Shown piece by piece: positions 27,601 to 30,600 of a stretch of DNA of 64,000 bases. The DNA lies in the NCBI GenBank assembly GCA_963765205.1, contig CAVXVB010000005.1, positions 448,001 through 512,000 on the forward strand, read 5' to 3'. Within the stretch, counting starts at the first letter, position 1, and every line of letters begins with the position of its first letter. The position numbers are program-made. The stretch is from an uncultured Verrucomicrobiae bacterium (GTDB lineage Bacteria > Verrucomicrobiota > Verrucomicrobiia > Opitutales > JABDGR01).

Positions 27601-30600
27601 GTGGACGGCTCAGCCGCGGAAGTCGCCGCGCAGAAAAAGGCCCTGGCCCGACTTTTGCGAAAATCCGGCGCGCTGGCCCTGCGCGACACCGGCGACCCGG
27701 CCGCGGCGGAAAAACTCTGGCAAGTGCGCCGCACCTGCTCGCAGGCGATGTTCCAGATGGGCGACGCGAAACTTAACGAGGATGTCGTTGTGCCGCCGCG
27801 CGCCTATATCCCGCTGCTGACTTATGCCCGCGCGCTCAGCCGCGCCACCGGCCTGGCCACGCCGACTTACGGGCACGCAATGGACGGCAATTTCCACGTC
27901 CACCTCATGTATCATCGCAGCGACCCACGCGAATGCCGCCGGGCGGAACGGGGCGTGGCCGAGCTGATGAAAAAAGTCCGCGCCCTCGGCGGCGCCATCA
28001 CCGGCGAGCACGGCATCGGCCTGGCCAAATCGCCCTTCCTGCGCCTGCAACACGCCCCCGCGGAAATCCAGGCGATGCGGGCCATCAAAAAAGCCCTCGA
28101 CCCGCGCAACATCCTCCACCCCGGCCAGATTTTTGACCCTGTCTCCGTCTGGCAGTTTCCGCATGTCAAAGTGAAGTTGCCGTGGGATAAGGACTAGCAG
28201 AGGGACAAAGGGACAGAGGCACTAAGGCACTGAGGGCCGAAGTTTGGGTCACTTGTTGGTTTTGCGGTTTGGGCGGCGTCTCTATTATAAACACCCGCCA
28301 TGGATGACCACGAACTGCTGCGAGAATACGTCGAGCGCCAGTCGGAGCCAGCCTTCGCCGAACTGGTGGCGCGGCATGTGGATTTTGTCTATGCCACGGC
28401 CTGGCGCGTCATGGGCGATTCGGCGGCGGCGCAGGACGTGGCGCAGGCCGTATTCATTCATCTGGCGCGCAAGGCCTGGACGGTGCGCGACGGCCGCGCG
28501 CTCGTCGGCTGGCTCTACCGCGCGACGTATCGCACCGCGCTCGACACCCGGCGCGGCGAACAACGCCGCCGCCAGCGGGAGACCGACGCCATGATCCTGA
28601 CCGAACAAAACTCCACTTCGCCCGCCGCGTGGGAAAAGCTCGCGCCGCTGCTCGACGAGGCGCTGCAACAGCTCAGTCGCGCCGAGCAAAACGCCGTGCT
28701 GCTGCGCTATTTCGAGGGCAAGACCCTGCGCGAAACGGGCGCGGCCCTCGGCACGACCGAAGACGCCGCGCAAATGCGCGTCAGCCGCGCGCTCGATAAA
28801 ATGCGCACCCACTTCGCGCGCCACGGCATCACCGTCGCGACCGGCGCGTTGGCCGTGGCCCTCTCGGCGAACACCGCCAAGGCCGCGCCCGCCGGGCTGA
28901 CCACGCGCGTGACCGGGACTTCCCTGGCCGGCGCAAGTGGCGCAGGATTGGGCGGAGCAATGTTGAGAATTCTTTTTATGAGCACCAAAACTAAAACAAT
29001 CCTCGCCGTCGTCATTGTCTTGGCTGTTGTCATCGGCTTAAAATTCACCCTGTGGCAACCGGCGGAATCAACCACTTCCGTCAAGACGGCTACCAACCTT
29101 ACCGCGAGCAGCGCACCACCTGCCGCCGCGTTGCCGACCGCCAGACCTCCCGCCATCCTGCCCCCCACCACGCCTCCAGCCCCGGCGAGAAACGTGGCCA
29201 GTTCAACCGCGGTGGTAGCCAACCCGCCGGTCAACGAGCAGGTCAATATTGATGAGGCCACCGTCTTCGTAACGCAGTCAATTCAGACGCCTTTGCTGTC
29301 CTACAAGCTGGCGATGGGGCACTACCCCTCGACGGAAGATGGCTTGGACGCGCTCGTGGATGTCCCGATCCACGATAACGCCGCGAGCTGGAAAGGTCCC
29401 TATTTCAATACCACCGTTGTGCCGCTGGATCCCTGGGGCCACCCATATGAATACGCCTTTCCATCAATTCACGGCCAAGTCGATGGCAGATACGATGTCT
29501 GGTCCGACGGCCCGGACGGCATCAACGGCTCCGCCGACAACATCGGCAATTGGGAGAAATAACAGGCCGATAGTCGCAATCGGCGCGTTTCTTCCGTCCC
29601 GGGGAGCGCGACCGTCCCGGTCGCTGCGGTCGGCGTCTCGCCGACCGCTTCTTGGCCAACGCGGCGGTGTAGCGCATTCCCCGCTTTCTCAAAGATGTCC
29701 TCGGCGAGACGCCGAGGACGGCGGGCGGGACGCCCGCGCTCCCCGGGACGATAACGCTGCTTCTAAAAGCCCCAAAAAATTCAGCGTTGGTATCAGAACC
29801 AAATGGCCCCGCCCCATTCCTCACGCTTCCGGCCCGGTTTGCGCTTCTTCCCAGAGCAGGAATTGGTATTCGCGGCGGCCAATCCAGAGGATAAAGAAAA
29901 ACAGGGCGGCAAGCAGATACGCCTTGAGTAGGAGCGCGACAACGATGCCCGCGACGGCGACGCAGCGGCCGATGTTGAGCGCCCAGCGCGTGGCGCGCAG
30001 GTAATCGAGCTTGAAGGCCAGCAGCGCGCGCAGGATGCGCCCACCGTCCATCGGGAACGCCGGCAGCAAATTAAAACAGCCGAGCACGAGATTGGAAACC
30101 AGCAGGAATTCCAGAATGTCGTGCCAATGCGTAGTCGGCAGCGTGTCGTCCGACAAGTCCGCCGGCCAGCCGCCGAGCAGGGCGAGGCTGAGGCCCGCGA
30201 TAATGAAATTCACCGCCGGGCCGGCGGCGACGATGAGCAATTCCTCGCGCGGGCTTCGCGGTAGTCGGCCCAACAGCGCCATGCCGCCAAAGGGCAGCAG
30301 CACGATGTGCTGCACAGCAACACCCAGCTTGCGCGCGGTCAGCGCGTGGCCGAATTCGTGCAGCACGACGCAGGTGTAAACCAGCGCGACCGCGCCGAGG
30401 CTCTGGAACAAGCCGCGCCAGGGGTGGTGCGGCTCGTCCATCCAGCCCTGCGCGCCGACCACCAGCGGCAGCAGGTAGAACGTCGGGTGCAGCTCGAGGG
30501 TGATGCCACGAAAGCGGAATAACTTCATTGACCCGAAGGGCATGAGGATGAATGTTGTTGGGTTCGGAAGGCCGCGAACGCGCCGCCTCCGCCAAGTTGA

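Follow-up and report, generated by a model that had tools for sequence, protein, structure and literature searches.

The window analysed here, a stretch of 64,000 nucleotides from the genome of a soil Opitutales bacterium (G000), contains at positions 28300-29562 of the forward strand a gene whose open frame, free of stop codons, encodes a protein of 420 amino acids (P0001). The survey's finding that a single chain combines an ECF sigma factor, a transmembrane (TM) helix, a linker and the head of a GspG-type pseudopilin is borne out by the open reading frame, Pfam, hydropathy and an AF2 model. A promoter-like block (28251-28293, forward strand) ends 6 nt before the ATG. On the other side, a palindromic, MITE-like repeat element (29575-29793, unstranded) lies between this gene and a convergent one on the reverse strand (29821-30528), beyond which a gene for an NtrC-type sigma-54 response regulator (30610-32133, forward strand) was recognised by profile matches and synteny. 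The convergent gene encodes, as had been claimed, a small M50 peptidase (P0002, g00978; 235 aa, no PDZ domain): the frame is open, PF02163 matches with 77.4 bits and the motifs HEFGH and NLLPAFPMDGG are intact representatives of the HExxH and NxxPxxxxDG types that mark an M50 site-2 protease. The MITE-like element gave 39 blastn rows on 9 contigs at 73-100% identity, matches itself on the opposite strand and in Logan contigs falls where the depth peaks and loose ends occur; it probably lies outside the sigma system.

Architecture of the fused protein

Sigma region 2 (residues 22-90; 28363-28569, forward strand like all parts of the gene) is recognised by PF04542 over its entire model (1-71 of 71, E 2.3e-10), and sigma region 4 (residues 118-169; 28651-28806) by PF04545 and by PF08281 (residues 118-168, model 4-54 of 54), while Pfam finds no match to regions 1 or 3, leaving the sigma2 and sigma4 domains typical of ECF factors. 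TIGR02937 scores 72.6 against a cut-off of 42.9. The AF2 model has a pLDDT above 90 across residues 1-190, including all of region 2, and Foldseek pairs it with ECF sigma structures in both regions (SigW, RpoE, AlgU, SigH and SigL chains, E 2e-6 to 1e-4). With complete sigma2 and sigma4 domains and this predicted likeness of fold, P0001 can be classed as an ECF (group 4) sigma-70 factor.

Behind region 4 follows a family-specific cytoplasmic tail (residues 170-226; 28807-28977) that ends in LRILF and is conserved in paralogs and database relatives. Helices are predicted at 181-191, 200-213 and 218-225, and pLDDT drops along the tail from 95 to 56. Neither Pfam nor NCBIfam finds an anti-sigma domain between sigma4 and the membrane (no zf-HC2, RskA, FecR or ZAS). 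A complex prediction of the sigma core (1-172) with the tail (173-232) scored 0.23, against a mark of 0.32, and speaks neither for nor against contact between them. Hydropathy places the single TM helix at residues 233-253 (28996-29058; the Kyte-Doolittle profile peaks at residue 242 with 2.65) and not at 224-245 as the survey had it; AF2 predicts a helix over residues 229-252, covering the TM segment, and arginine and lysine residues on its N-terminal side are in keeping with an N-in/C-out orientation. A second TM helix at residues 176-195 was considered and rejected, the hydropathy peak being just 1.2. The linker (residues 254-316; 29059-29247) is rich in proline, alanine and threonine (14 A, 12 P and 9 T among the 62 residues counted), varies among the fusions and is predicted to be disordered, with a pLDDT below 50 across residues 253-309. 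The remainder of the chain, residues 317-420, is the pseudopilin head (29248-29562 with the stop codon), and the model supports its placement in the periplasm, at the C-terminus of a membrane-held ECF sigma factor.

Pfam assigns residues 325-418 to T2SSG (82.2 bits, E 3.4e-23, model 18-108 of 108), whereas N_methyl (PF07963) has no match in P0001 and the GspG model TIGR01710 scores 73.3, under its cut-off of 88.85. The head is, as claimed before, 65% identical to that of the only gspG gene, which opens the operon of a type II secretion system (T2SS): BLASTP aligns 67 of 103 identical residues (E 4e-50) from GspG residue 75 onwards, and a T2SSG scan of the whole genome returns this gene and that of P0001 only. 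In the operon gspG is followed by N_methyl pseudopilins, GspK, GspM, the secretin and GspE. This operon lies on contig C8 and the fusion on contig C5, outside the T2SS cluster. A relic of a gspG 3' end, 36-37 aa long, stands just upstream of gspG.

The modelled head (pLDDT 93-96) matches the PulG structure 1t92 at E 3.9e-15, and Foldseek superposes it on EpsG/PulG structures with TM scores of 0.71-0.78 (3fu1, TM 0.76, rmsd 2.2; 3gn9, TM 0.78). The Ca site of PulG (D117, S122, D124, D125) aligns with D, S, D and N of the head, so that 3 of 4 side chains are kept. The prediction is thus of a GspG globular fold with a C-terminal Ca-binding loop, and the motifs PLDPWG and DxWSxGPDG..IGNW are shared with GspG/PulG/EpsG (TIGR01710; 1t92, 3fu1, 3gn9, 5o2y). 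Unlike GspG, the head lacks the leader, the G|F cleavage site and alpha1N, and a foreign TM helix with a linker of 62 aa serves as its tether. Because prepilin leader and alpha1N are missing, the available evidence supports the view that it can neither be processed by prepilin peptidase nor polymerise into a pseudopilus. Recent gene conversion between head and gspG was examined and rejected, given nucleotide identities of 67% and 70% and longest identical runs of 20 and 18 nt.

A family of tethered sigma factors and the origin of the fusion

A tblastn search identified 17 paralogs of the P0001 type in G000, 41-60% identical over residues 1 to ~230-260 and with C-terminal lengths of 257-1005 aa. 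A word-index search of the database gave 759 relatives and phmmer 7573 clusters at E<=1e-30, and most of the best 150 phmmer clusters match just residues 1 to ~245-320 of P0001; going by their record titles, the relatives belong to Opitutales/Verrucomicrobiota. Judged by these alignments, P0001 is a member of a very large PVC (Verrucomicrobia/Planctomycetes-type) family in which sigma2-sigma4 and a conserved cytoplasmic tail of ~55 aa, ending in a junction of the LFMSTK kind, are followed by a single TM helix and a periplasmic domain that can be exchanged. Ectodomains in the family include a serpin (in one G000 paralog), Laminin_G_3 and TonB_C. Sigma-less homologs were found in G000 for 13 of the 15 paralog ectodomains queried; ectodomain capture is therefore generic in this family, and a T2SS-specific function is not implied by it.

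Alignment of the 17 upstream regions defines the promoter-like block, which is common to all 17 G000 paralogs and was recovered by nhmmer in front of the P0001 gene (C5:476251-476293, E 9e-4). Its consensus reads approximately TTTGTc..gaTTT, then after roughly 8 bases GGcGGt and an A/T-rich TaAA. Across 80 metagenome loci it precedes 37 of the 92 family sigma genes and has 3 matches elsewhere in 634 kb, and in the related genome G009 it stands ahead of both tandem sigma genes. At the gspG operon of G000 nhmmer did not find it, the nearest match being 15 kb off (E 6.7), and nor was it found in 109 kb of gspG loci from related genomes, where the best match has E 2.7. Its absence from the gspG loci means that there is no sign of the T2SS as an output of the sigma factor.

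Within this known class of tethered sigma factors with exchangeable sensors, a pseudopilin head is, by sequence comparison, a rare ectodomain. Fusions of this kind were found in 7 proteins, with heads 38-78% identical, and a search of the literature found none described. The survey had listed the same make-up in 4 of the 120 best relatives, and those four (P0003, P0004, P0005 and P0007) are again the only T2SSG carriers besides the query among the 120 relatives listed. Its claim that, among the 150 matches it listed, a frame of ~420 aa occurs in just two genomes of one genus likewise held in a search of 401 Opitutales genomes with P0124, in which 4 candidates per genome were scored and full-length matches were found in G000 and G009 only. 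Of the 10 family genomes, 2 have the fusion. None of the 80 metagenome loci from a scan with the fusion alignment has a GspG head, all being sigma relatives, and a head-pattern scan of genome contigs gave 26 loci, with a sigma gene beside the head in the G009 record only. For the genus relative, which is probably G009, the order of fusion, M50 (65% identical) and NtrC regulator was found as described; the figures differ, the fusion being 49% identical over 417 aa and the regulator 84%, where 48% over 418 aa and 89% had been given.

The two halves of P0001 have different nearest relatives. Over residues 1-226 it shares 95.6% identity with P0006, whose ectodomain is of another kind, and 54% with P0003, whereas from Met227 to the end the values are 71.6% for P0003 and 35% for P0006, and sliding identity puts the breakpoint at about residues 195-232. 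The equivalent locus of G009 has two genes in tandem, sigmaA (436 aa) and sigmaB-head (418 aa); P0003 and P0006 are both found on 14,651-bp contigs, and their own tandem arrangement is read from that alone. On these alignments the P0001 gene is a recombinant in which modules were swapped at the conserved junction, and the evidence points to tandem paralogs as the partners. The survey had noticed neither this origin nor the gene's place among 17 modular paralogs. In G000 the head is joined anew to another sigma module, and therefore the wiring of head to output is not fixed.

A mis-join of two tandem paralogs in a metagenome-assembled genome could produce the same picture, the sigmaA N-terminal part being joined artificially to the head, and it would have cost a segment of ~1.4 kb that is indeed absent from the assembly. 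At a depth of ~5x and with short pieces, no independent Logan contig reaches from discriminating sequence on one side of the crossover to such sequence on the other: record 3 of X1 begins at 28921 and record 15 of X3 stops at 28924. Yet the former reproduces 28921-29628 with 0 differences, no 21-mer or longer from 28800-29100 is repeated in the genome, and the longest identical run shared by the tandem paralogs of G009 is 11 bases. Moreover, the join lies on a 690-kb contig of a 12-contig assembly, and sigma-head fusions recur in independent assemblies (G009/P0007, P0003, P0004, P0005, P0124 and P0159). We therefore regard an artefact as extremely improbable.

Proposed release of the sigma factor and input to the head

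The reading that we favour, with chances that we would call even, is that P0001 is a one-component, membrane-tethered ECF sigma factor which is released by proteolysis and whose head shares its input with GspG. The sigma factor would be inactive while tethered. A change in the state of the head (loss of a partner, unfolding, loss of Ca2+ or cleavage) would cause the ectodomain to be trimmed and the chain to be cut within the membrane, and the freed sigma factor would act on the family promoter, that of its own gene included. Since the head copies the major pseudopilin of the same cell and is under selection, its likeliest input would be one that acts on GspG as well, either a partner or a substrate of the T2SS or else the stability of the pseudopilin; this is the weakest step of the scheme, and a link between head and type II secretion is a plausible possibility. 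PulG has been described as degraded in vivo without calcium (PMC13081927).

Against its G009 ortholog the head has a pN of 0.20 and a pS of 0.81, and overall its pN ranges over 0.19-0.29 and pS over 0.59-0.81, a signature of purifying selection. There are 41 invariant columns in residues 320-418 of an alignment of 8 rows, where one protein appears twice, as P0007 and as the G009 gene. Within a genome, dN between head and own GspG is 0.22-0.25, compared with 0.33-0.37 across genomes. Four sites are 'concerted', with the head co-varying with its own GspG, and two of them fall in the loop aligned to PulG 69-83, as against 6 sites that favour plain orthology; inside the relevant clade the tree is poorly supported, with UFboot values of 56 and 62. 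This co-variation is the only hint of a link to the T2SS, and a weak one.

As to the protease, the survey had proposed that the head acts as a decoy that samples the T2SS, and that the neighbouring small M50, as a site-2 protease dedicated to this task, sets the sigma factor free. Release by proteolysis remains reasonable by analogy with IutY and ECF52, as far as these are described; its assignment to the neighbour is not supported. The peptidase has its catalytic motifs and Pfam match, and it is convergent with and adjacent to the fusion in both G000 and G009, but 8 of 10 family genomes have a block of M50, NtrC and GalE genes, many more than have the fusion, and a Na/H or Na/Ca exchanger gene adjoins the M50 gene in 5 of the 6 neighbourhoods fetched from relatives. 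In G007, G003, G005 and G002 the stretch fetched around the M50 gene includes the exchanger and no sigma gene, and in G006 the exchanger sits between sigma gene and M50. Furthermore, an M50 gene adjoins just 1 of the 17 sigma paralogs of G000, and elsewhere (C5:213.7-215.7 kb) the genome encodes an M50 of RseP type, with PDZ domains, which would be the likelier protease. On this genomic context the small M50 is probably unrelated to the sigma gene, and we consider the survey's scheme, with its dedicated role for this peptidase, very doubtful.

It is also conceivable that the head is a passenger, shuffled in as a generic folded plug whose unfolding or degradation under envelope stress leads to release, with no specific relation to the T2SS. 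The variety of unrelated ectodomains in the family, the sigma-less homologs of most of them, the recombinant nature of the gene and the missing promoter link between family block and gspG would all fit, and fortuitous insertion of duplicated sigma modules has been proposed for Planctomycetes ECF extensions by Pinto and da Fonseca 2020 (PMC7671368). A mere plug is harder to reconcile with heads kept recognisable over 7 fusions, with a pN/pS pattern that resembles that of real gspG genes, with the fusion-specific conserved head residues WGHPY and PSIHG and with the similarity of each head to the gspG of its own genome, and we find this account unlikely. A broader idea, which we think unlikely, is that each tethered sigma factor of the family exposes to the periplasm the duplicate of an envelope protein that the cell also makes (the major pseudopilin head here, a full serpin in one paralog, and in others domains for which sigma-less genes exist too), and that agents which hit the real protein (a partner or substrate of the T2SS, a protease, loss of Ca2+, an attacking phage or a toxin) also hit the copy and so evoke transcription directly. 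If this were true, the state of the pseudopilus would be read through a non-polymerising GspG mimic, and recombination at the junction would rewire which sigma factor each sensor controls.

Finally, the in-frame ATG of Met227 (28978-28980, forward strand), the methionine of the junction M-S-T-K-T-K, is a candidate internal start, from which a sigma-less protein of 194 aa (TM helix, linker and head) could be made in addition to the full-length sensor and modulate either that sensor or the T2SS. A pattern search found the Met-bearing junction motif in 10 of the 17 paralogs. The 18 nt before the codon have a GC content of 0.22 in the P0001 gene, compared with a gene mean of 0.64, and are in the lowest 0.5% of in-frame windows; the corresponding stretch is A/T-rich at a quantile of <=0.015 in 6 of 10 genes and of <=0.101 in all 10. 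Separate genes for sigma-less, membrane-anchored homologs of family ectodomains also exist. However, the A/T richness is partly explained by K/I/L/F codons, and Met227 may be left over from an ancestral state with two genes; a gene with two products is in our view distinctly improbable.

Comparison with known sigma factor systems

Among ECF factors, those that are tethered in the membrane and have a sensor of their own are the class understood least, and they are very numerous in PVC bacteria. The ectodomain of P0001 has a known fold and a known cellular counterpart, GspG, making the signal input of the family open to experiment by way of candidate partners, dependence on Ca2+ and proteolysis. 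Should the head indeed sense the state of the T2SS, transcription would be coupled to a secretion machine by feedback of a new kind. There is a precedent for an ECF sigma factor coupled to type II secretion in the PUMA3 system (SigmaVreI/VreR/VreA) of Pseudomonas aeruginosa, whose sigma regulon is described as including the Hxc T2SS (PMC2729926). P0001 is a single polypeptide encoded far from the T2SS operon and without sign of a T2SS regulon, whereas PUMA3 is reported to signal from the cell surface through three proteins and to lie next to the hxc genes.

Closer in architecture are IutY of Pseudomonas putida (ECF243) and SCO4117 of Streptomyces coelicolor (ECF52), described as fused sigma/anti-sigma proteins subject to regulated proteolysis (PMC8999054). 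Like P0001, they have an N-terminal ECF sigma factor, a TM helix and an extracytoplasmic C-terminal sensor, with no separate anti-sigma gene, and SCO4117 likewise has a proline-rich region ahead of its outer domain. According to this description, they differ in phylum and in their sensors, which are of FecR type or carbohydrate-binding, whereas P0001 has a pseudopilin head and, in place of a recognisable anti-sigma domain, just the short tail.

With regard to classification, ECF57, ECF262 and 10 mentions of Verrucomicrobia in the part of the supplement of Casas-Pastor et al. 2021 that was covered were considered for P0001 and did not fit (PMC7826278). ECF57 is described there as 100% Planctomycetes, with ~2 TM helices and a conserved pair of cysteines, in sigma2 and sigma4; P0001 has one TM helix, no cysteine and relatives in Opitutales/Verrucomicrobiota, and falls outside that group. 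The passages covered of that study and of PMC7671368 mention no pseudopilin extension. The extended ECF factors described in both nevertheless resemble the P0001 family in their PVC lineage, their many paralogs, their conserved sigma core and their swapped, TM-bearing C-terminal extensions, and in both groups the history of the extension disagrees with that of the sigma part. The published model, as outlined there, has sigma modules inserted into other genes, whereas for P0001 the evidence points to recombination of tandem paralogs at a conserved junction, a concrete case of how one-component sigma sensors are rewired.

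A sigma factor carrying a pseudopilin head

The forward strand of the window holds an uninterrupted 420-codon frame (28300-29562) whose product, P0001, joins the domains of an ECF sigma factor to the globular head of a GspG-type pseudopilin. Pfam recognises Sigma70_r2 at residues 22-90, Sigma70_r4_2 at 118-168 and T2SSG at 325-418 (82 bits, model positions 18-108 of 108), and found no N-methylation motif. Hydropathy reveals a single strong TM segment (233-253) that basic residues flank on the N-terminal side, and the linker that follows (254-316) abounds in Ala, Pro and Thr; residues 176-195 were rejected as a further strong TM segment because hydropathy peaks there at only 1.2. 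In NCBIfam, the ECF superfamily model exceeds its cut-off, and the GspG equivalog scores 73.3, under its cut-off of 88.85. The head is identical at 67 of 103 positions to the product of gspG, the genome's single major pseudopilin gene, and a T2SSG scan of the whole genome returned these two genes only. These results bear out the survey's finding of a sigma-TM-T2SSG head architecture, with gspG, in the T2SS operon, as the sole other T2SSG gene; only the exact position it gave for the TM segment had to be corrected. The architecture is genuine.

In an AlphaFold2 model based on an alignment of 73 rows (mean pLDDT 83), the sigma domains are well defined (pLDDT >90 up to residue 190, ~80 up to 213), residues 229-252 form the TM helix, the linker is disordered (pLDDT <50 across 253-309) and the head is confident (93-96). 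Foldseek matched the N-part to ECF sigma structures, including SigW/RsiW, RpoE/RseA and AlgU/MucA, and the head to EpsG, PulG and GspG structures (3fu1, TM-score 0.76, rmsd 2.2 A; 3gn9, TM-score 0.78). By sequence alignment to PulG (1t92, E 3.9e-15), the head has D, S, D and N at PulG D117, S122, D124 and D125, and the genome's own GspG, read from alignments, has T, A, D and T; a 2026 preprint gives D117, residue 122, D125 and possibly D124 as the PulG calcium ligands (PMC13081927).

Such fusions are few. Among the relatives listed, P0003, P0004, P0005 and P0007 share the arrangement with P0001, and phmmer added P0124 and P0159, which match over the full length at 41% and 39% identity; of the five members in the P0124 cluster, one occurs on 15 contigs. 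In a search of 401 Opitutales genomes that scored four candidates per genome, full-length matches came only from the genome under study (G000) and G009, of the same genus, and the fusion occurred in one of 26 genome contig loci and in none of 80 metagenome loci. The linkers of the aligned fusions cannot be aligned, and residues 320-418 contain 41 invariant columns across eight fusion rows, which include one protein twice (P0007 is the G009 gene). Since pN and pS between G000 and G009 are 0.20 and 0.81 (saturated) for the head and 0.24 and 0.63 for the real gspG, selection on the head looks no weaker than that on gspG. P0001 is a rare, selected variant of the known one-component, membrane-tethered ECF sigma of PVC type. 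Described relatives in kind include ECF52 SCO4117, a fused sigma/anti-sigma with a proline-rich region and an outer domain (PMC8999054), and the ECF57 proteins of Planctomycetes, whose extensions contain TM segments (PMC7826278); an ECF group fitting P0001 may exist among the groups of the latter work. Pinto and da Fonseca reported unrelated extensions on duplicated Planctomycetes ECF sigmas and proposed that the sigma module was inserted into other genes (PMC7671368). Our full-text literature search found no sigma-pseudopilin fusion.

The paralog family and its promoter block

With residues 1-260 as query, tblastn recovered 17 paralogs in G000 (41-60% identity, E<=2e-38), all with sigma2 and sigma4 and 15 of them with a conserved tail followed by a hydrophobic stretch; those at C9:113250 and C7:125111 (truncated) diverge in the tail region. 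Total lengths of 257-1005 aa are set by differing C-terminal parts. The 257-aa paralog at C7:124338-125120 is probably frameshifted or truncated, because family resemblance is lost beyond residue 200. Database relatives of P0001 are numerous (759 by word-index search; 7573 phmmer clusters at E<=1e-30), and most of the best 150 of these clusters align solely to query residues 1 to ~245-320; some relatives have Laminin_G_3 or TonB_C in the C-terminal part. One paralog (C4:182105-184339; L013:3109-5343, forward strand) carries a complete Pfam Serpin domain behind the TM segment (359 bits, residues 353-739), and the genome also encodes a serpin homolog that lacks the sigma part (45% identity; C5:589693-590883); a sigma factor fused to a suicide-substrate protease bait is striking in its own right. 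Sigma-less genomic homologs exist for 13 of the 15 paralog ectodomains queried, some of them in the gene before or after the paralog. Sensor and look-alike are neighbours in this way for the paralogs on C5 (199.6 kb and 524.0 kb), C9 (305.0 kb and 1074.4 kb), C11 (142.0 kb) and C7 (54.8 kb), and two of the adjoining look-alikes on C7 are small proteins anchored in the membrane.

An upstream block of ~45 nt is common to all 17 paralogs. When an HMM of this block was run over the genome, the paralogs ranked first, followed by a few genes for membrane or periplasmic proteins; across 634 kb of metagenome sequence (80 loci) it gave 40 matches at E<=1, 37 of them no more than 60 nt in front of one of the family's sigma genes and three elsewhere, so that 37 of the 92 family sigma genes in these loci have the block. 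This pattern is as expected for an autoregulated ECF promoter, and the block may instead serve another regulator shared by the paralogs. The block also precedes non-sigma genes or a relic in G000, at C9:660832-660876, C4:243726-243763, C4:115670-115702, C7:118690-118731 and C2:133540-133577, which are candidate regulon members. Behind these five blocks lie an 835-aa TM protein homologous to the ectodomains of two paralogs, a 695-aa membrane protein, a TM thioredoxin-like protein, a member of a sigma-less ectodomain array and a 68-aa sigma relic. The block HMM found no family block at the gspG operon of G000 (closest match 15 kb off, E 6.7) or in 109 kb of relatives' gspG loci (top match E 2.7). 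The Hxc T2SS is under SigmaVreI control (PMC2729926); nothing in this analysis shows the T2SS to be a regulon of P0001.

Recombinant origin, the M50 neighbour and probable release

Over residues 1-226, P0001 shares 95.6% identity with P0006, a protein from the databases whose C-terminal domain is unrelated, but only 54% with P0003, whereas from Met227 onward P0001 is 71.6% identical to the head-bearing P0003 and 35% to P0006. By sliding identity the changeover falls within residues 195-232, which is the conserved junction of the family, and by these comparisons the gene is recombinant. The syntenic site of G009 holds a tandem pair, each gene preceded by its own promoter block: sigmaA (436 aa, P0006-like ectodomain, 70% identical to the N-part of P0001) and sigmaB-head (418 aa, identical to P0007). 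G000 has a single gene there, a sigmaA N-part with the head, as expected from deletion or unequal crossover between tandem paralogs; a chimera made by mis-assembly is unlikely. Public contigs show a depth spike and loose ends at window 29575-29793, a palindromic MITE-like repeat between the sigma-head and M50 genes (39 blastn rows, copies on nine G000 contigs, 73-100% identity).

The junction motif bears a Met in 10 of 17 paralogs. The 18 nt before the junction ATG of the P0001 gene have a GC content of 0.22 versus 0.64, in the lowest 0.5% of in-frame windows, and the same stretch is A/T-rich in all 10 Met-bearing paralogs (quantile <=0.101), which is compatible with an internal start and a candidate second, sigma-less product of 194 aa.

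The survey had also tentatively linked the sigma factor in function to its convergent neighbour, a 235-aa M50 peptidase (P0002). The neighbour is present, with its metal and NxxPxxxxDG-type motifs intact and an NtrC-type regulator gene after it; the functional link was not supported, an M50 ortholog being found in 8 of 10 family genomes and the fusion in 2. The order M50-NtrC-GalE is constant in the neighbourhoods of six relatives, and a Na/H or Na/Ca exchanger gene adjoins the M50 gene in G007, G003, G005 and G002 (stretches L060, L062, L059 and L063), where the stretches examined around it contain no sigma gene; in G006 (L061) an exchanger separates the M50 gene from a sigma paralog that has no head. 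This suggests that the small M50 has a role other than sigma release. It is co-directional with exchanger genes in G007, G006, G003 and G002, lies on the same strand upstream of the exchanger gene in G005, and always adjoins the NtrC-type regulator and GalE in these five genomes. Because relatives keep the M50 block without the fusion, and because G000 has four M50 genes, one of them RseP-type with PDZ domains, the adjacency is inherited synteny rather than a sign of function. Release of the tethered sigma by proteolysis would be the most likely mechanism by analogy, IutY, a fused sigma/anti-sigma, being freed by Prc and RseP (PMC8999054), and RseP is a better candidate protease than the neighbouring M50.

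The head compared with GspG

A tree was computed for 37 heads, of which 32 came from 10 family genomes (gspG or fused) and five from database fusions, the partial row L043 being left out. One clade (UFboot 96) unites the G000, P0003 and G009 fusions with the main gspG of G000, G005 and G009, and branching order within it is weakly supported (UFboot 56, 62). In G000 and G009, dN between head and gspG is 0.25 and 0.22 within a genome versus 0.37 and 0.33 across genomes, and dN between orthologs is 0.23 and 0.28. Of the quartet sites, six favour orthology, namely position 3 and another five within the C-terminal half (among them the fusion-specific WGH and PSIHG), four favour within-genome pairing (head positions 15, 18, 44 and 49) and none the third topology; recent gene conversion between head and gspG was ruled out. 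Positions 44 and 49 align with PulG H76 and E82, within the loop 69-83 that the preprint describes as critical for secretion specificity (PMC13081927). The comparison of these two genomes gives a weak hint that head and GspG have a common partner, and a weak comparative hint for the attractive notion of the head as a readout of the type II secretion state.

The gspG gene is the first of an operon that also encodes N_methyl pseudopilins, GspK, GspM, a secretin and GspE. Directly upstream of it lies a relic of a gspG paralog, its last 36-37 codons (C8:17342-17452; L003:7343-7465), and relatives hold two to eight head matches per genome, mostly tandem gspG paralogs; copies of gspG therefore seem to have been deleted in G000.
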